Positions 2,888 to 34,512 of a DNA stretch of 64,000 nucleotides are shown here, in pieces. Where the stretch lies: assembly GCA_963762565.1 (NCBI GenBank), contig CAVXLD010000012.1, positions 224,001-288,000 of the forward strand, given 5' to 3'. This DNA comes from an uncultured Verrucomicrobiae bacterium. GTDB taxonomy: Bacteria > Verrucomicrobiota > Verrucomicrobiia > Chthoniobacterales > JAFAMB01. Made by a program: the position numbers and the translations under genes. Below the pieces are notes generated by a model that was not told where the DNA came from, searched no databases, and saw nothing but the letters and a program-made list of their open reading frames with translations. Position 1 is the stretch's first letter. The number at the start of each line of letters is the position of its first letter.

Positions 2888-3154
2888 CCTGGAGGGGAGC
2901 CGCTTCGCAGGGTTGCAGCTCTATCGGCTGGCAGCCACCGAAAGCCTCCGGGGGTAGACAGGCGGCTCCCGGGAACGTCTCATCGTCTGCCATCACTCAT
3001 CGCTTCCGGATCCAGACACGGTACAACGCTGGGTGATCAGGTCGTGGGCTATTCGCGGGAGCCGCTTGCTTGTGTGGATTTACAGCGGCGATGATCCAGC
3101 GGCTCCGGTTATCCTTAGCGGCCCGACGATGCGTAAAAGCGGCTCCCCTCCAGG
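2888..3154. repeat. REPIN-like element, family B, copy 1
   Basis: 18-bp terminal IR CCTGGAGGGGAGCCGCTT / AAGCGGCTCCCCTCCAGG with internal GGCGGCTCCCG / CGGGAGCCGC motifs; related copies at 37955 and 53978. Confidence 0.85.
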
Positions 3155-3238
3155 CTTGGGGCGCTTCGACGATCGCAGGTGTTGTAACCGCTAATCATCC
3201 TCGTCCTTGCTGCTGGGAGGCGCAGCACCCCGCCTCAG

Positions 3239-3730
3239 TCAGGCCACACTTACTTTCTGAATAACCACGTCTTCTTTTGGCACATCCTGATGTCCGCCCG
3301 AGCTACCGGTGCCGACCTTCCTGATTTCATCAACCACGTCCATGCCCTCGGTAACCTTGGCGAATACGCAATACCCCCAGCCGTCGCGACTTGGGGACTT
3401 AAAGTTGAGAAAGCCATTGTCGACCACGTTGATAAAGAACTGAGCCGTCGCCGAGTGCGGATCACTCGTGCGTGCCATGGCTAACGTCCCCCGATCGTTT
3501 TTCAGTCCGTTATCCGCCTCGTTCTTAATCGTTTTGTTGGTCGGTTTTTGATTCATTCCTGGTTCAAATCCCCCACCCTGAATCATGAATCCCTTTATAA
3601 CCCGATGAAAAATGGTGTTGTCGTAGAAGCCAGATCGGCAATAGTCCAGAAAATTCTGCACCGTTACCGGCGCTTTCTCATCAAAAGTCTCAATAACGAT
3701 ATCGCCGTGATTTGTATGCAAAGTGACCAT
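3239..3730 (-). CDS. ppiB: Cyclophilin-type peptidyl-prolyl cis-trans isomerase B
   Basis: [22 protein letters not shown] and ATAQFFINV cyclophilin motifs; no signal peptide. Confidence 0.95.
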
Positions 3731-8044: not shown

Positions 8045-8653
8045 TTAAAAGAGATAGGGAATTAGCGCCGCGGTTCTGGCTTGATACTCCTTGTACACCG
8101 AGCCGAACGTCTCCCGCATGAAGCGTTCTTCAAGCGTCAGCTTGCGCCAGAAGGATTCAAAAGCGATCAGCACCCCGAGGATCCCGCACCAATCGCCGTT
8201 TACTATAGCGGTGCCCAAAAAAGCCACCAGTATACCGGTGTAAATCGGGTGGCGCACCAATCGGTACGGTCCAGTACAAATCAGCTGATGATCCTGCTTT
8301 ACCTGAACAGTTCCACTCCAGTTGCGACCGAGATGTTGGCGAGCCCAGACGCTGAAACCTAGACCTGCAGCGATTAACATCACTCCCGACCAGTACGCGT
8401 CAGTTCCTTGTAGTAGAAAACGCGAAAGTAGGAATCCTCCTCCGGGAATCGTAGGGATAGAAAGCAGGATCGACGCGATCGCGATCGGTATGCTATAGCT
8501 CGCGCGCGCCCCGGCCGACTCACGGCGAACGGCCAGCTTCACACCTGCTGCCGACAATCGCCAATAAACCAACCACGGGATCCATAGAAGCAGCACGATC
8601 CCTGCGCGTGTAAGATACAACATGGCTGGGACCCTATTCGCGGCCAATTGCAT
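8045..8653 (-). CDS. Isoprenylcysteine carboxylmethyltransferase (ICMT/PEMT) family membrane protein
   Basis: LGRNWS, HQLICTGPYRLVRHPIYTG, EERFMRETFG..Y..Y motifs. Confidence 0.88.
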   Translation of the reverse strand: MQLAANRVPAMLYLTRAGIVLLLWIPWLVYWRLSAAGVKLAVRRESAGARASYSIPIAIASILLSIPTIPGGGFLLSRFLLQGTDAYWSGVMLIAAGLGFSVWARQHLGRNWSGTVQVKQDHQLICTGPYRLVRHPIYTGILVAFLGTAIVNGDWCGILGVLIAFESFWRKLTLEERFMRETFGSVYKEYQARTAALIPYLF

Positions 8654-9920: not shown

Positions 9921-9930
9921 AATTGGGGTT

Positions 9931-10019
9931 CTGCCGCGAAGCGGCTAAACATGATAGCCCAGGGCTTTAGCCCTGGGTGGCCGTACCATGACATGCGCCC
10001 TCACGAGTGGCGCCCGAGC
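9931..10019 (+). repeat. REP unit, family A (hybrid CGCCCTCACGAGTGGCG variant)
   Basis: CTGCCGCGAAGCGGCTA...AGCCCAGGGCTTTAGCCCTGGG...CGCCCTCACGAGTGGCGCCCGA; homologous to 31151-31234 and, inverted, to 33097-33170. Confidence 0.85.
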
Positions 10020-10075
10020 GAGATGTTACGATGTTGGAGCATTTAATTCCGCAAGTCGCGCCAACATCCGCTGCC

Positions 10076-25823: not shown

Positions 25824-26294
25824 TTAGATCCATCTGTGCACCCGATTCTTATAGTGTATCCAGTTCTCGCCGAAATCCCTTTCCAGCTGCTTCTCTTCTC
25901 TTCTGATAAACAGGTCCACCAGAGGTAGATGAAGGACCGTAATCAGCAGACCCATGAGCGATCCTATCCACAAAGCTGCTCCAAAAAATACGAATACATT
26001 GCCGCCAAGATAAAGCGGGTTACGGGAGAAGCGATAAGGCCCGGAGGTAAAAAGGATCTTCTGTGGCTGCAGAGAGATCACTTTGAGGTGGTGGGCGTAG
26101 AAGTAGAATGCCGCCCATACACGTAAGAGAAATCCAGCACTAATGAGTAACCAGCCTGCCAGTGTTGCCAAGGCGGAGTGAAAACCGTGGATCCCCAGGA
26201 GGCGGTCTAGCGTCGTACCGAGGAAAGCAACGCAGGACCCCACCAGCACGACCGAGATGTTGTGAAGAATGCTTTTGAATAAATACCGTACCAT
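25824..26294 (-). CDS. PEMT/ICMT family membrane methyltransferase
   Basis: TSGPYRFSRNPLYLG, REEKQLERDFG..W..Y...V.RWI. Confidence 0.85.
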   Translation of the reverse strand: MVRYLFKSILHNISVVLVGSCVAFLGTTLDRLLGIHGFHSALATLAGWLLISAGFLLRVWAAFYFYAHHLKVISLQPQKILFTSGPYRFSRNPLYLGGNVFVFFGAALWIGSLMGLLITVLHLPLVDLFIRREEKQLERDFGENWIHYKNRVHRWI

Positions 26295-27120
26295 CAGATT
26301 CCTTCTCAGGTTGGCTCCAGGGACCTTAACGCAGAATTCGCTCGCGGGAATATCCACTAAAGATGCCACCGCCGCGGGGCTGCCGCTGCGCTCTTCAATG
26401 CGCCAGTGTGTGTATGAGGGGTTATGATCATAACCCGCTTAACCTGTCAAAAAATGGGGTGCAGCCAATGCCCCGTGCGTCGAAACCATTTTCAACAACC
26501 TCCGCGGGTAGCCGGAGAAGGTCTAGGTTAAAGCCTGGTGGCCTCGCAAGGGGCAGCGCTCCACAATCATACGTTCCGCGCATTTTCCTGGGAAAACTGC
26601 CAGGACTTCCAGCAATCGCAGGTTAGTCAGTTAGCAATAACTCACACTTAAGATCTCTAATACCAGTCGAGCATGTTATTGCGATAGGTGTTCATGATGA
26701 ATCAGAACTTCGATCGCGTGTCCTCTTCTAACCATTCTTCTGCTGACTACGAAAACGATTGAAGACGTTAAGCGTTGATACTTTGGCTACTGGAGCACGC
26801 AAGGCATCTTTAACTAATCGAGCGAGAAGAAGATCGCTGTATGAGACAAATTTGAGTTTTATGAAATGAAATTATTTTAATAGGAAGCCTGATAATCATA
26901 CTAATCTAGTAGGTATAACCGGCGATATCAGATATATGACGAAGAAACGTAATCTGCGTCTGCAGAGCCATTTACAGCTCTTGTGAATGTTCGCCTTTCT
27001 CGAGAAATCTTGCAAAACGCACTGGTTACGGCTAGTCAGTTTTACCAACCGATCGGTGTAGAAAGATTCTCAAAATATTTTTCTTCTATTCGTGTTAAGT
27101 ACTTTGTTACCTTGTTACAA

Positions 27121-29613: not shown

Positions 29614-30177
29614 GTGTTCCATTGGACCGACATACTGGCTCTCGGATACCTCGGCTTTGAACTTTTCCTTGTAGCTACCCGCCGGGGAAAGCTAAAGGCT
29701 AAGTCGGTTGACCGCGGGACCATTATCGCTGCTTGGATTCTGATCCTCGGCAGTTGCATCACTGGCTTTTTCGTGACTCGCCGCATCACGGTCCTCAATT
29801 GGCCTGCGCATTCGCCGGGTATTATCTGCGTGGCTGTCTTATTTTTGGTCGGTGGTGTCGCGCTGCGCATCTGGGCCATCCGGCATCTAGGAAGATTTTT
29901 CACGGTTAATGTCGGTATTCAACAAGGACACCAAGTAATTCAGGATGGTCCCTATCGATTTGTGCGGCATCCTTCCTATACCGGCTCAGTGCTAGCGCTG
30001 ACTGGGCTTGGGTTTCTCACTTTCAACTGGCTTGGATTGGTCCTGATTGTAACCTGCACGTGGTTGGCATATGCGCTGCGGATTCCAGTAGAAGAAAAGG
30101 TGCTGATGGCGCAGTTCGGGCGCGAATATGTGGAATATGCGGCGCACACTAAGAAGTTGATACCCTGGATCTATTGA
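29614..30177 (+). CDS. ICMT family membrane methyltransferase
   Basis: LRIWAI..LGRFFT, HQVIQDGPYRFVRHPSYTG, RIPVEEKVL..QFG.EY.EY. Confidence 0.88.
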   Translation: MFHWTDILALGYLGFELFLVATRRGKLKAKSVDRGTIIAAWILILGSCITGFFVTRRITVLNWPAHSPGIICVAVLFLVGGVALRIWAIRHLGRFFTVNVGIQQGHQVIQDGPYRFVRHPSYTGSVLALTGLGFLTFNWLGLVLIVTCTWLAYALRIPVEEKVLMAQFGREYVEYAAHTKKLIPWIY

Positions 30178-30352: not shown

Positions 30353-31132
30353 ATGATCATCACGCTGCTCACCGATTTTGGTCTAAACGACTACTACGTT
30401 GCGGCGATGAAGGGCGTGATTCTTTCGCGTTGCCGCGAAGCTCGCTTGATCGACATCAGCCATGGGATCGCCCCGCAAAATGTCCTTTCTGCTGCGTACG
30501 TGTTGCTGGGCGCCTATGCGCAATTTCCTGCTGGGAGCATTCACCTGGCAGTGGTTGATCCGGGCGTGGGATCGAAGCGGCGTGGTATTATCTTGCGAAG
30601 CGATCGCTATCTTTTCGTAGGTCCAGATAACGGTCTATTCTCATTGGTTGTACCCGAAACAGTTGAAGCGTTCGAGATTCAGCCATCTGCTTACCTGCCA
30701 GCAACGATCAGCAACACGTTTCACGGGCGCGATATTTTTGCGCCGGCGGCGGCTGGTCTAGCTGCAGGTATTAAGCCAGAGGAACTCGGCGTCTCCATTC
30801 GCGATGCAAAAAGGCTGGCGCCGCTCTCCGTAGTCCTCGGCTCAAGAATTAAGTCTCAGATTATCCATATCGATCGATTTGGTAACGCTGTGACTGGCAT
30901 TGAACGTCGCCATCTTCAGTCCGAGTTGCTGCCCCCATCATTCGTCCTTCGGGCCGGACAAACCGATATTCGTGTACAGAAGCGGTTTTATGCAGAAGAA
31001 CCTGTGGCCTCCGGTGAGCCTTTTGTGATTTGGGGCAGCCTTAATTTCTTGGAGATATCGGTCACGAACGGTTCCGCGGCGGAGTCAGTCAGCGTGTCCT
31101 GTGGTCAGGAGATTACGCTGGAGCTTGGGTAG
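30353..31132 (+). CDS. SAM hydroxide adenosyltransferase (DUF62, chlorinase/fluorinase family)
   Basis: ITLLTDFG, DISH, VVDPGVGS.R, VGPDNG, SNTFHGRDIFAP, IDRFGN. Confidence 0.93.
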   Translation: MIITLLTDFGLNDYYVAAMKGVILSRCREARLIDISHGIAPQNVLSAAYVLLGAYAQFPAGSIHLAVVDPGVGSKRRGIILRSDRYLFVGPDNGLFSLVVPETVEAFEIQPSAYLPATISNTFHGRDIFAPAAAGLAAGIKPEELGVSIRDAKRLAPLSVVLGSRIKSQIIHIDRFGNAVTGIERRHLQSELLPPSFVLRAGQTDIRVQKRFYAEEPVASGEPFVIWGSLNFLEISVTNGSAAESVSVSCGQEITLELG

Positions 31133-31150
31133 GGTCTGAATTCGATTTTA

Positions 31151-31336
31151 CCGCGCAGCCGTTACAGAACATAGCCCAGGGCTTCAGCCCTGGGTTAATC
31201 GCATAAGTGACACGCCCTGAAAGTGGCGTCCGAAGGACGATGATCCAGGTGTAAACGTAGTGCGATCTAGCGCCATTTTCGGATGACCGATTTAGTCAAT
31301 ACAATTGGGCTTTGAAACACATTTCGTCGGGCGCCA
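31151..31336 (+). repeat. REPIN family A: left arm, spacer and inner part of right arm
   Basis: CCGCGCAGCCGTTA..AGCCCAGGGCTTCAGCCCTGGG..CGCCCTGAAAGTGGCGTCCGA; the inverted arm begins TCGGGCGCCA at about 31327 and is interrupted by the IS. Confidence 0.8.
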
Positions 31337-31393
31337 CTCGTGAGGAACATGGTGGAGCTACCCACGACCCGCTGAGCAAGAGGAGGTACTTTT

Positions 31394-32809
31394 TCATGCT
31401 GCGACTGGAGTAAGTTGATAACCCATCTGACGAGCGGAAGCCGCCAGGCGTTTGAGCCTGGCGTTGGTCATTGAGCTTTTCCTGCTCAGCGAAGAGGCTC
31501 AGATCAAAAGGGACCTGTCGGGTAATGAGAGTCCAAATGATTCTGGCTAATTGATGAGCCATGGCAGTGATGGCTTTGGGAGGACTCAGTCTAGCCCGTA
31601 AGCGGCGGTATTTATCGCCTAAGTAGCTTTTGTTGTGGTGGAGAGAAGAGGCGGCCATGCGTAAGGCTTGTCGCACTCGGTTTTGGCTGCGGCGGGTACG
31701 GCGGCGCAGTATCTTACTAGCACTGGTTTCATTGTCTGGGCATAGACACAGCCAGGAAGCAAAATGATGCTGGGTTTTGAAGGCGTTTAACTCATTGCCT
31801 AGCTCGGTCATGAGCGTCAGTCCGGTCAGAACGCTGATACCAGGAATGACGGTTAGATCCACCCCAAAGAAGCGCTCCAGCTCTTGTTGCCAGGGACCCT
31901 CAGGTTGATTCTTGCTGGTCTTCCTGCAGGCCTTCTTTTTAGGCCGTGGGCTACTTACCGGCTCAGCACCCAATAATTCGGCCTTTAAGCGCACCACTTT
32001 AGCCGGTTTAATCACCGTGGTGCAGGCTCAAGCTCACGGGTGTAACCCAAAAGCTCTCTGTCACAGTCCTGGATCTGCTTTTGCACCTCTTGGTATTGAG
32101 CCCAAGCCTTCGCCAGCACAAAGAGATGCTCTTTACGCCAGTCGCCTTCCAAAGATTTGACGACCTTCTCTTCAGAAGCCCGGATGCGCTTATCGCGCAA
32201 CTTCGCTAATTGCACTGGATCTCTCTGCCCGCTTAAGAGGCAGCACGTGGCCTGACCGGTAAGGCCGCTTAGATCGTCAATGACGTGGTGCAGCTTGATA
32301 TTCATTTGCGCCAGGCTGCCTGCATATGCTGCACGTGCTGAGCGGCAGGGAGAGCAAGTTTTGCCGGAAGCATAAGAGCGGGTGGCGCAAATAGTCTGAG
32401 CGGGACGAAAGGAGCCCAACAGCAAGCCCACACTGTGCAGATACTGCAACCACTGGCAATCCCGCACGTCGCTCTTGCGACCTGGCACATTCTTGACATG
32501 CCGTGCGTTAACTAAGCAGACCTTCAGCCCCGCATCCTCCAGCAATTGATAAAGCGGTATCCAGTACACCCCAGTGGCTTCCATCGCCACGCTCTGCACT
32601 CCACAGTCAACTAACCACTGCACGATGGCCTTAAGATCTTGAGTAAAAGCCTCAAAGCGGCGCACCGAGTTTTGGTCACCCTCGGCCGCGACGGCCACCC
32701 AGATTTCCTCAGCTCCCAGATCAATGCCAGCCGCGTTGGGTTCCTGCTCACGGATCGCTTTAGTGGCTTCAGGCTTGGTTTTTGCTTTTGTTTTCCTATG
32801 CTCTTTCAT
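31394..32809 (-). pseudogene. IS110 transposase/recombinase (DEDD RuvC and Tnp domains), multiply frameshifted
   Basis: AAGIDLG, VAMEATGVYW, VNARHVKNVPGRKSDVRDCQWL, FASWLCLCP...SA, KAITAMAHQLARIIW; ends ..MGYQLTPVAA*. Frame changes near 32350, 32250, 32015 and 31455. Confidence 0.88.
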
Positions 32810-32818
32810 TGGGATTGG

Positions 32819-33007
32819 CCAACGAAGGAGGCTTGGCTCAGACGGCGAAAAATAGAGACATTCTCGTGAACGGAGTCCTGGATCCACTTAGACGGATTCC
32901 GGCCACCACTGAATTGATCGCAGCGTCTGATTCCATGCTTTCAGTCGGGCTTAGCTACCACGGAGCACCACTGTGGCCTCGGATTACTTGCTAAGCCTCC
33001 TCGTTGG
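32819..33007 (-). ncRNA. Candidate IS110 bridge RNA (structured non-coding end)
   Basis: Lies in the about 290-bp non-coding end upstream of the transposase; closed by an about 15-bp inverted repeat (32819-32834 / 32993-33007); contains junction-matching 10-mer and 7-mer. Boundaries are inferred. Confidence 0.55.
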
Positions 33008-33098
33008 TGCTCCTGCCTTAGCAACTCCAAAACGCTGCTGCACCATAAATCGAATGTTCCCTCTCCGAATTGCACCCGCGTAGCGGGTTGGAGATGCT

Positions 33099-33170
33099 TT
33101 CAGGGCGCACCTCTCGACGCCAGCACCAAGGGCTGAAGCCTAGGCTGTGATGTATAGCCGCTTCGCGGCA
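33099..33170 (-). repeat. REPIN family A: outer part of right arm
   Basis: TTCAGGGCGCAC..CCAAGGGCTGAAGCCTAGGCT..TAGCCGCTTCGCGGCA is the reverse complement of family A units. Confidence 0.8.
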
Positions 33171-33319
33171 AAATCCAACAGAGCCTAGGCGAGCTGGGCT
33201 CGACCGGAACGGGCTCGCCCCGCGGCTGCGGGAAAGGCAGCGGCTTGTCGGGTGGCGACCCCGACGGCCTCGCACGTGTCCTCCATAGCTTTAGCGACGG
33301 AGGAAGCGACGCAGCGCTC

Positions 33320-33827
33320 TTTGGTGGGGCGAGGCTCCCGAATAATCCAGGCGTTTGTCCAAAGCGGTTGGGAGTGCCGGCCCGCAGCATACTGTTACGG
33401 CTTAAATCGCGCCGAGCCGTGGTCTACCGTGGGCCACGGCTCGGCGCGCCTATCCGCCCTGTTCATGCAACTCCCGGCGTTTGTGTGATGCACCCTTGGT
33501 CAATCGCTGGGCCGTTCGGGAGGGTCCGTGGTCAAGACATAGGTAACAAATCATGGTCAAGACATGGGTAACAGGTACATACAAAAAATGACTGGGGTGA
33601 CTCGGAGATCCGCCCAGCTGGCCGACGGAGGTCAGCTGATAAAAATCGCATGCCGATCGTTCGCGAGAATGGTCGCTTCTGCCCTCTCACACATTTCACC
33701 CTCAAAAAGGACAACCAAAGGAACCATACATTTTTTGATTGCCCAAGAATAGGTATATAAAAAGCACATTTTCTCGACAAAGTGTTACCTATGTCTTGAC
33801 CACGTTCAGGAGCCTCGCCCCACCAAA
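33320..33827. repeat. Palindromic element family C, interrupted by a MITE
   Basis: Terminal IR TTTGGTGGGGCGAGGCTCC / GGAGCCTCGCCCCACCAAA; central palindrome CGCGCCGAGCCGTGG..CCACGGCTCGGCGCG; intact inverted copy at 62140-62355. Confidence 0.85.
33523..33808. mobile_element. MITE (286 bp) with IS481-like ends and GGAG target duplication
   Basis: 22-bp IR CGTGGTCAAGACATAGGTAACA / TGTTACCTATGTCTTGACCACG, a second tandem copy at the left end, GGAG on both sides; absent from the 62140 copy of the host repeat. Confidence 0.8.
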
Positions 33828-33840
33828 AGCGACCCGCCTC

Positions 33841-34512
33841 CTAGCTCCTGGCTCCTTCCCCGGGCTCCTGGCTCCTTTGCATTTTCCGCCGATAGTAGCG
33901 TTTCGCCTTCGCTCTGCTGCCGCAATCATCCATGTCACACCACCGCCGGGTATGGTTCTTCGTGAGATCGAGAAACAACCAGCCACATTCCTCGCCGGCG
34001 CATTGGCGGACTTTGCTTAGGGACTCGCTGGATCCCAACAATTCGGCCGCCGACCAGGCAACGGGTCCTAATAGACGCGCTTCATCCAACATACAGCCGG
34101 TGCGGAAACAGACCAGCCGTTCACCTTCTGCGCCAACCTGTAAAGTGATTGGTGTGCGAGCGAGCAGACCATTGATTACGTCCAAATCGCACTTCGACGG
34201 TTGCCGGCCCTGGCTGACGTCGCTAAACGCGCGGTAAAGCCCTTCTCTGAAATCCACCGCTAAATGGAGGAGACGCTCGGCTTGAGCTGGAACCATCGCG
34301 CCCTGGCGCAACATCTCTGTGCTGGCGGAGTCATCCAGGATGTCCGCCTGACGCGCCCAAGTTATCAGGCTTTTGAATGAGGCGAGTTTTTCCCTGGGGT
34401 GCGACGCTCGGTGATTCCCGACCGTATTCGTAAAGTCCAGACAGAGAACCCCGCCGATCCAACCGAAACTGGTTTCAACATCCGGATCGCTGCTGCGCGA
34501 CAAGTTTTCCAT
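33841..34512 (-). CDS. ABATE / CGNR zinc-finger protein
   Basis: LCLDFTNT, VRQC...CGWLFLD.TKN..RRWCDMDDCGSRAKAKRYY. Confidence 0.9.
   Translation of the reverse strand: MENLSRSSDPDVETSFGWIGGVLCLDFTNTVGNHRASHPREKLASFKSLITWARQADILDDSASTEMLRQGAMVPAQAERLLHLAVDFREGLYRAFSDVSQGRQPSKCDLDVINGLLARTPITLQVGAEGERLVCFRTGCMLDEARLLGPVAWSAAELLGSSESLSKVRQCAGEECGWLFLDLTKNHTRRWCDMDDCGSRAKAKRYYRRKMQRSQEPGEGARS

Follow-up and report, generated by a model that had tools for sequence, protein, structure and literature searches.

Background

Targeting of repetitive extragenic palindromes (REPs) by insertion sequences (IS) of the IS110 and IS1111 groups has been reported for several lineages (Choi 2003, as cited by Durrant 2024; Tobes and Pareja 2006), and the closest described counterparts of the element treated here are IS621 and ISEc21, together with the IS1111 elements. 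The present locus lies in a stretch of 64,000 nucleotides from an uncultured Verrucomicrobiae bacterium (contig CAVXLD010000012.1, positions 224,001 to 288,000 of the forward strand), hereafter called the window, whose first letter is position 1. In our reading, a gap of ~2.7 kb between two convergent genes of this window contains no gene of unknown function, but a dead IS110-type element lodged in a doublet of hairpin repeats. A first-pass annotation made from the letters alone had already pointed to such an element, and several of its claims are taken up below.

According to Hiraizumi (2024), the target loop of the IS621 bridge RNA is composed of a stem, the left target guide (LTG), a stem-loop, the right target guide (RTG), the handshake bases and a stem; the LTG reads as the top strand does, and the RTG is the complement of the core together with the right target. 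The IS621 core is CT in gene sense; the last two bases of the LTG are CU, and those of the RTG are AG, after which come two handshake bases (Supplementary Table 1 and designer code of Durrant 2024). These handshake bases do not fit the cognate site, but they fit the other partner once the strands have been exchanged (Hiraizumi 2024). In the seekRNAs of IS1111 elements, as described by Siddiquee (2024), the complement of the top strand lies 5' of the match to the bottom strand, this order being reversed in ISEc21, which is of the IS110 type; the same source places the non-coding stretch of IS1111 elements downstream of the gene and gives them sub-terminal repeats of 11-13 bp with 7- and 3-bp extensions and enzymes of 330-350 aa. 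A preprint on ISPpu10 adds that a target-encoded stem-loop brings specificity beyond base pairing, and large surveys of bridge-RNA diversity exist.

Insertion site and boundaries of the element

The element measures 1,760 bp with one copy of the core counted and occupies the minus strand at 31339-33098 (equivalently 31337-33096). We consider it very probably a fossil copy of a bridge-RNA-guided IS of the IS110 family, sitting in its cognate hairpin repeat and now dead. On the plus strand, the junctions read as a left flank ...GGGCGCCA-CT, the last base of which is 31338, and as an element end ...GGAGATG-CT followed from 33099 by a right flank opening with TTCAGGGCG. The dinucleotide CT, which is AG in gene sense, stands at 31337-31338 and again at 33097-33098, the core of the left-end junction on the minus strand. 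Since it is the only sequence common to both junctions, there is no target site duplication beyond a 2-nt core, as the first-pass annotation had maintained. Absence of terminal inverted repeats and duplication limited to a short shared core are both features of the IS110 family.

An inverted-repeat search returned two half-matches around the element, I13 (31213-31223 with 33097-33107, 11 nt, 100%) and I14 (31222-31233 with 31327-31338, 12 nt, 92%). When the element is removed in silico they abut and form a 21-nt inverted match with a single mismatch (T versus C at 31229), so that the proposed reconstruction of the arm at 31213-31233, bar one base, by removal of 31339-33098 was confirmed. Only one transposase match exists in the 64-kb window, indicating a single copy of the element, and the intact 16-mer of the target occurs once there even when up to 3 mismatches are allowed.

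The two ends are very unequal. The left-end non-coding region (32810-33096, minus strand) extends over ~287 nt between the core and the start codon of the transposase and encodes the predicted bridge RNA, and the right-end non-coding region (31339-31393, minus strand), after the stop codon, has 55 nt. Nine nucleotides inside the core, the left end carries a terminal hairpin, CCCGC-TAC-GCGGG (33075-33087, minus strand), and a hairpin of differing sequence is found at the same place in families A, B, C, D and F. The short sub-terminal inverted repeat announced by the first-pass annotation is indeed present: its left copy (33054-33063, minus strand) and its partner (31342-31350) have 10 and 9 nt and differ by one extra G, with extensions of ~35 nt on the left and 5-7 nt on the right. 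An equivalent pair was found in all eight distinct elements (11 rows) compared, where the reverse-complement matches of the donor stand at +34 to +41.

Guides encoded in the left end

Three segments of the left end read the element's own target and donor. In the predicted target loop, the 5' guide X1 (AGGCCAC, 32973-32979, minus strand) contains GCCAC, which complements the gene-sense strand over the core G and the right-flank TGGC. In the same loop, the 3' guide G1 (ACTGAAAG, 32935-32945, minus strand) reproduces the last 5 nt of the left flank and the core AG in its guide proper, CTGAAAG (32938-32944), which is followed by the handshake CAT, identical to the first three bases of the element. 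The sequence TCACGAG, made up of the final five right-end bases and the core, lies 75 nt beyond CTGAAAG-CAT and belongs to G2, the 3' guide of the donor loop (TTCACGAG, 32863-32870, minus strand), which matches the last 5-6 nt of the right end and the core AG. All three guides match their own target or donor exactly in the window copy. The target and donor sequences predicted by the first-pass annotation therefore proved correct, both being recognised by guides that the left end itself encodes. A further candidate, matching in 10 of 11 positions at +68 of this end, was considered as a guide for the left-end half of the donor and rejected, as it is not kept in the related copies L001 and L002 and corresponds to a local stem.

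Related copies and co-variation of guides and sites

Related copies were collected by scanning a genome collection with an alignment of 27 relatives; 611 stretches matched, 598 were confirmed and 77 distinct loci were kept, the window's own genome not being among them. The closest relative, copy a of locus L001, comes from a metagenome-assembled genome (MAG) of the Chthoniobacterales, and its similarity to the window extends beyond both element ends into the flanks. With a left flank ...CCCTGAA-AG, a right flank TGGCACC and an inverted partner arm downstream, it has the same ends as the window copy and is inserted at the same base of the homologous arm, which answers, in favour of the first-pass annotation, the question it had raised whether other copies would share these boundaries. 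L001 also holds a second, truncated copy at the end of the locus (left flank ...CCCCTTC-AG). A Verrucomicrobiae MAG contributes three copies, L002 (left flank ...CCCCTTC-AG), L003 and L003rc (both ...CTCTTTC-AG), whose right flanks open with GGCGGA or AGCGGA. In each of these copies (window, L001, L002-4) the insertion lies in the loop of a GC-rich hairpin. The other loci are ~50% identical in protein, and many of them are multi-copy in MAGs of Acidobacteriota; for six such families the ends were fixed by aligning the copies within each family, and they read ...TCCTyrGG-AG on the right and AG-C(A/G) on the left.

The guides change together with these sites. G1 is CUGAAAG in the window and in copy a of L001, and CUUUCAG in L002-4, where the site is CTTTC-AG in two copies and CCTTC-AG, with one mismatch, in L002. 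G2 reads CACGAG, CAGGAG and UAUGAG in the window, L001a and L002-4 respectively, thus tracking the right ends CACG, CAGG and TATG. As CUUUCAG is the exact reverse complement of CUGAAAG, different lineages can apparently enter the same type of loop from opposite strands, and natural retargeting is thereby visible among the relatives. Copies of the L002-L004 lineage could thereby take the opposite orientation relative to the arm from those of the window and L001a.

In a wider comparison, an nhmmer profile of the left-end region matched the upstream regions of all 79 related copies. Guide columns were taken from the profile alignment, simple regular expressions having missed ~30 of 81 copies, that of the window included. 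After this alignment, 74 of the 79 copies display regular 8-nt guide columns; every left guide (74/74) and all right guides but one (73/74) end in AG, in agreement with the AG core in gene sense that had been proposed from the window alone. An exact G2 7-mer is present in the 290 nt that follow the gene for 60 of 66 copies, compared with 371 of 3,842 (9.7%) in the control, which consists of the guides of copies carrying a different guide. For G1, 47 of 69 copies have an exact 7-mer in the 120 nt examined upstream (control, 1.1%); when one mismatch is tolerated, the number rises to 62 of 69 (control, 15.6%). The two nucleotides after G1 equal the first two of the left end in 54 of 62 copies and in 23 of 28 distinct guide variants.

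An unbiased scan, in which each RNA column was compared with each flank or end position over 54 unique RNA/site pairs (37 distinct RNAs), gave the G1 and G2 segments as its top signals. It also revealed an antiparallel diagonal between X1 columns 38/37/36 and positions +1/+2/+3 of the right flank. Runs of at least 4 nt involving X1 occur in 15 of the 54 pairs for ~1.0 expected, a level reached by none of 2000 shuffles, and the X1 signal appears real, but short and often weak. Altogether, three guides out of the four expected were identified, and these co-vary with their sites; no segment complementary to the left-end half of the donor was detected.

Some members of the clade have a left target that is the right end plus core of another member (...TTTCTTAGG-AG, ...TTTCTTGAG-AG and ...TTCTTGAA-AG), namely L077 (copies 6001, 7847 and 10253), L078 (Burkholderia vietnamiensis G4, pBVIE04), L079 (Nostoc sp. 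C052), L080 (Caballeronia SBC2) and L009/L013/L016. Such elements are chained head-to-tail, each guide matching the end of its neighbour. As L078-L080 share the RNA layout and the AG core, both features extend to plasmids of cultured Burkholderia, Caballeronia and Nostoc. At another locus, L029, a group II intron (domains D1-D4, 2991-3280) is located ~3 kb from an Acidobacteriaceae copy of the IS.

Predicted structure of the bridge RNA

The two-loop core of the putative bridge RNA is placed at 32819-33007 on the minus strand, within a predicted closing stem pairing 33007-32990 with 32837-32819. An alignment of relatives yielded a consensus of 49 distinct RNAs with five helices and 27 pairs. 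In this consensus 95.3% of the cells are paired, compared with 26-46% when the partners are slid by 1-3 columns, 19 of the 27 pairs show compensatory change, and the covariation score is 0.445 versus at most 0.108 after sliding; none of 500 shuffles reaches any of the observed measures. Invariant U-G and G-U pairs are compatible with the gene-sense strand only. Two internal loops of pseudo-symmetric build are enclosed by the helices. The first is arranged as stem, X1, stem-loop (UGGUGC...GCCCG), G1 with its handshake, and stem; the second follows the same plan and bears G2. A long non-coding end with a predicted structured RNA of two internal loops is a further trait of IS110-family elements. 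The closing stem surrounds both loops in the minimum free energy folds of the window, L001a and L002 and, being outside the 27-pair consensus, is not covered by the covariation.

An Rfam match to VA RNA within 30500-34000 was discarded as spurious, the only other match in that interval being Acido-Lenti-1. The closing stem pairs a GAGGAGG resembling a Shine-Dalgarno sequence with CCUCC and stops ~10 nt before the ATG of the transposase. No obvious Shine-Dalgarno sequence is seen there in the window, L001 and L002 copies, and GGAG precedes the start in many of the ~50% relatives; the closing stem may thus couple folding of the RNA to translation of the transposase. No convincing pair of -35 and -10 boxes was seen by eye, a systematic scan for promoters not having been run.

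Transposase gene and family membership

The transposase pseudogene covers 31394-32809 on the minus strand, from the start ATG at 32809-32807 to the stop TGA at 31396-31394. Both domains expected of the family are recognised by Pfam: the DEDD/RuvC-like domain PF01548 (E = 7e-15) in the open reading frame (ORF) 32012-32887, where the match is limited to profile positions 1-102 of 155 because the rest of the domain is out of frame, and the Tnp_20 domain PF02371 (E = 7e-15) in the ORF 31296-32015. A search of a protein collection scored 8,000 candidates, 7,998 of them with E <= 0.001; the full-length relatives among the matches listed have 473-475 aa and are 80-82% identical over the N-terminal part.

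One of these relatives, the 473-aa protein P0012, was aligned to the window with tblastn. Its residues 1-264 fall in one frame, residues 265-453 in another and residues 453-473 in the first frame again, and out-of-frame stretches occur inside the first segment near residues 146-167 and 190; the pseudogene carries at least four frame changes. Compared with the L001 copy (87.2% nucleotide identity), it shows 13 insertion or deletion events, 11 of them in the coding sequence (CDS), and 9 of these 11 have a length not divisible by three. Of the 56 other ORFs scanned in the window, most match Pfam models over nearly their full length, among them LeuA, aspartokinase, homoserine dehydrogenase and a histidine kinase of 1,127 aa, which indicates that the assembly is not generally frameshifted. 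We conclude that the transposase gene is most likely a real pseudogene.

Standing in for the broken gene of the window, the 81%-identical P0012 scores 259.9 bits against the NCBIfam IS110 equivalog NF033542 (cut-off, 140); with the two Pfam domains, this upholds the assignment to the IS110 family made by the first-pass annotation. With IS621 (PDB 8WT6), P0012 shares only a distant similarity, in two short stretches (E = 5e-8), and its similarity to ISCro4 is likewise remote (E = 2e-5). The D of its GIDLG motif and the E of its MEATG motif align to IS621, and its catalytic Ser aligns with the SG motif of IS621, but the dipeptide is SA. An enzyme of ~474 aa with only this remote similarity to IS621 is consistent with the distinct clade of about 470-aa enzymes that had been suggested. 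The further suggestion of an independent REP-targeting system stood as far as the different clade is concerned, but not as a surprise, since knowledge of several REP-targeting lineages of IS110/IS1111 goes back to 2003-2006.

The target repeat and Acido-Lenti-1

A profile built from five arms of the target repeat recognises three arms in the window, none elsewhere in the window, and further arms at L001, L004, L018 and L002. The intact partner arm (31144-31238, plus strand; E = 8e-23) includes the target hairpin at 31213-31233 and is separated by a 93-nt spacer from the interrupted arm. The outer part of the latter, with the left half of the target hairpin, lies at 33099-33176 on the minus strand (profile match 33176-33097, E = 7e-19), and its inner 12-19 nt continue at 31320-31338. 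A third arm is found at 9926-10021 on the plus strand. From outside to inside, an arm comprises a small GC hairpin, a longer hairpin and, after ~16-20 nt, the GC-rich target hairpin, this innermost hairpin being the one whose loop received the insertion. Both window sites lie between convergent genes.

The arms form close inverted pairs in the window, in L001 and in L004, where the pair is intact, as do those of REP doublets forming hairpins (REPINs). The label of REPIN arm used in the first-pass annotation is thus borne out by the inverted pair, but as a resemblance only: the window has three arms in 64 kb, and no REP-associated tyrosine transposase (RAYT/Y1) was found among its 56 ORFs of at least 130 aa. 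With a single target 16-mer and three arms in 64 kb, the REP family is only thinly visible within the window.

The two outer hairpins of the arm together match the Rfam family Acido-Lenti-1 (RF01687; cut-off, 37 bits). Scores are 40.6 bits at 9932-9977, above the cut-off, 35.1 at 31149-31194 and 18.9 at 33126-33170 in the window, 47.3 in L001 (5098-5143) and 37.0 in L003 (12073-12117). Acido-Lenti-1 has been linked to group II introns and reverse transcriptases. Rfam files it as a small RNA (sRNA) gene of unknown function (RF01687; Weinberg et al. 2010). Here the motif instead makes up the outer half of a repeat that is dispersed, frequently in inverted pairs, and that receives the IS in its inner hairpin. 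This suggests that Acido-Lenti-1 is a REP/REPIN-like DNA repeat rather than an sRNA gene, an explanation open to testing for a motif whose function was still given as unknown in 2026.

Proposed mechanism and alternative explanations

By analogy with the family mechanism, the active element would have formed a circle in which the right end, the core and the left end were joined, and this circle would have recombined with the loop of the GC-rich hairpin repeat between the two convergent genes. A gene-sense RNA of ~190 nt with two loops, encoded in the left end, would read both partners, as the guide matches and the covariation indicate. In its target loop, the 5' segment GCCAC would pair with the gene-sense strand of the core G and right flank, and the 3' segment CUGAA-AG with the other strand of the left flank and core, followed by 2-3 handshake bases; in the donor loop, the 3' segment UCACG-AG would read the right end and core. 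Exchange at the 2-nt core would leave no duplication beyond it. More speculatively, the left-end half of the donor could be recognised through the conserved terminal hairpin and the sub-terminal inverted repeats. The transposase has since decayed by frame-breaking insertions and deletions, while all three guides still match their sites. Such a locus would document natural RNA-guided site choice in an unstudied soil-dwelling clade, with target, donor, three guides and handshake readable at one place.

The 3' target guide deserves a closer comparison with IS621. It ends in AG and is followed by CA(U), which mismatches the target's own bases at that place and matches the element end, and it corresponds for these reasons, in position and function, to an RTG. 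We lean towards the view that the element uses the chemistry of IS621 (a CT core and a 3' guide with AG and handshake), the CT strand exchanged first being antisense to the bridge RNA and to the gene. The AG core would then most simply be the usual CT core read from the other strand, and this flip would produce the guide order reported for IS1111-type seekRNAs. A more ambitious synthesis can be put forward only tentatively, and we doubt that it will hold in all its parts: the ~474-aa clade would be a third architectural type, with an upstream RNA, the guide order and sub-terminal repeats of IS1111, an antisense CT core and only three RNA guides, the left-end half of the donor being recognised through the terminal hairpin and the inverted repeats, and its natural landing pads in Verrucomicrobiota and Acidobacteriota would be REPIN-like repeats whose outer half is Acido-Lenti-1, this abundant orphan motif then belonging to a dispersed DNA repeat and not to an sRNA gene.

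Several observations weigh against the bridge-RNA account given above. Rfam finds no match in the left end at E <= 1. X1 pairs over 3 nt or less in 39 of the 54 unique pairs. No guide was found for the left-end half of the donor: X2, the 5' strand of the donor loop, is non-complementary in most families, and the unbiased scan returned for this half only scattered, non-diagonal signals. The donor-loop handshake expected from IS621 is absent, a conserved AGUGC/AAUGUC following G2 in its place. As copies of one element share ancestry, the copy-level counts overstate independence, the distinct variants being 31 for G1, 16 for G2 and 37 for the RNAs. Finally, with one copy in the window, specificity within the source organism rests on one insertion and one possible scar.

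The same guides can also be described without any flip of polarity, the element having a true AG core on the gene-sense strand, with the loop strands swapped and with core chemistry or contacts differing from those of IS621. The two descriptions are equivalent at the sequence level; moreover, Siddiquee (2024) reports the reversed order of IS1111 and allows that the mechanics may differ between families, and X1 pairing ends at the first core base, whereas the IS621 LTG pairs through both. We nevertheless hold this to be rather unlikely, because 3' guides that end in AG and carry a handshake mismatching the cognate site and matching the non-cognate one have the traits of the IS621 RTG, not of the LTG, and because the base that IS621 is described as reading most strictly is the T of CT, an invariant T existing here only on the antisense strand. 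Another possibility is that the site is set mainly by protein recognition of the repeat hairpin, the RNA matches being secondary or coincidental. The hairpin-loop sites of the window, L001 and L002-4 copies would fit, and so would the specificity attributed to the target stem-loop in the ISPpu10 preprint. Guides and flanks co-vary, though, over 31 distinct G1 variants, many sites are not hairpins (families B, C, D and F, for example) and the shuffled controls for the guide matches are far lower, so that we find this explanation very improbable as a substitute for guide pairing; the structure may contribute in addition to it.

Comparable care is needed for the state of the element and for the third arm. 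An intact and active element whose frame changes are assembly errors would agree with a contig possibly derived from long-read data, with the single-base size of several of the insertions and deletions and with three guides that are still perfect matches. It is hardly to be expected, however, when 9 of 11 CDS events within 1.4 kb break the frame outside long homopolymers and most of the 56 other ORFs are near full-length in Pfam. As for the third arm, its target loop (9996-10018) has ...CCCT-GAA-AG-TGG... changed to ...CCCT-CACG-AG-TGG..., and CACG is the last 4 nt of the element's right end, specific to its lineage (CAGG in L001), placed precisely at the site of insertion and oriented likewise with respect to the arm. 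Positions 9999-10017 are identical over 19 nt to the right junction at 31327-31345, none being expected by chance. It is possible that an earlier copy once sat in this arm and left a scar when it was lost by deletion between two CCT triplets. A natural variant of the repeat loop, with no scar involved, is a serious contender that we rate a little below an even chance: the case is single, repeat loops vary, the deletion would need only a weak 3-nt microhomology, and no further motif of right end plus flank was found beyond 9999-10017 in the window or in any of the loci.

Genomic surroundings

The window begins with a part of a 23S rRNA gene (1-2335, model positions 522-2925), followed by a 5S rRNA gene (2676-2791). 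Three paralogous genes for small membrane methyltransferases of the PEMT/ICMT family lie within 22 kb (8045-8653, 25824-26369 and 29614-30177), and one of the three stands two genes upstream of the IS site.

Comparison with known systems

With IS621 and ISEc21, the present element shares a recombinase composed of DEDD/RuvC-like and Tnp_20 domains, a 2-nt core without further duplication, a long left end encoding a gene-sense two-loop RNA, loops built as stem, guide, stem-loop, guide and stem, a 3' target guide that ends in AG before the handshake, and REP hairpins as natural targets. It differs from them by its enzyme (474 aa in the present clade versus 326-358 aa), by a core that is AG instead of CT in gene sense and by the reversed order of the top- and bottom-strand guides, which separates it from that subgroup. 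Its guides are also shorter, at 5+2, 5+2 and ~4+1 nt; an RNA guide was not found for the left-end half of the donor; and it has a sub-terminal inverted repeat of 9-10 bp.

The order of the guides, with the top-strand complement 5' of the bottom-strand match, is that of IS1111 elements (ISEc11, ISPa11, ISKpn4), which are likewise described as having sub-terminal inverted repeats and of which some (ISPa11) target REPs. The RNA is nevertheless upstream here, with a left end of ~287 nt for a right end of 55 nt, the repeats have 9-10 nt with extensions of ~35 and 5-7 nt, and the enzyme of 474 aa exceeds the IS1111 range. No description of an upstream RNA combined with the guide order of IS1111 and a sub-terminal repeat of 9-10 bp was found in passages of Durrant (2024), Hiraizumi (2024) and the Perry 2025 preprint, in sections 6 and 13 of Siddiquee (2024) or in the section 8 text of bioRxiv 10.64898/2026.10.21.760802; the layout may already be displayed in Extended Data Fig. 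10 of Durrant, in Figs 3 and 7 of Siddiquee or among the 86 covariance models of the 2026 preprint.

Concerning the target, ISPpu9 and ISPpu10 of Pseudomonas putida and the REP-targeting IS of Tobes and Pareja (2006) are reported to occupy a fixed position and orientation in REPs, as does the present element; these belong to other host phyla and an unrelated repeat family, and they are likened here by description. Like REPINs, the arms (~80-95 nt) are arranged in inverted pairs within 3' intergenic regions flanked by convergent genes, but they are longer and more composite than classical REPs and have a spacer of 93 nt.

The element thus appears as one ordinary representative of a clade of bridge-RNA IS that is large and mostly uncultured. 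Beyond the known kind, it is notable for its hybrid layout and apparent flipped polarity, the missing fourth guide and the link to Acido-Lenti-1; were the reading with flipped polarity and three guides true, a large clade would widen the design space of bridge recombinases and link the layouts of IS110 and IS1111.

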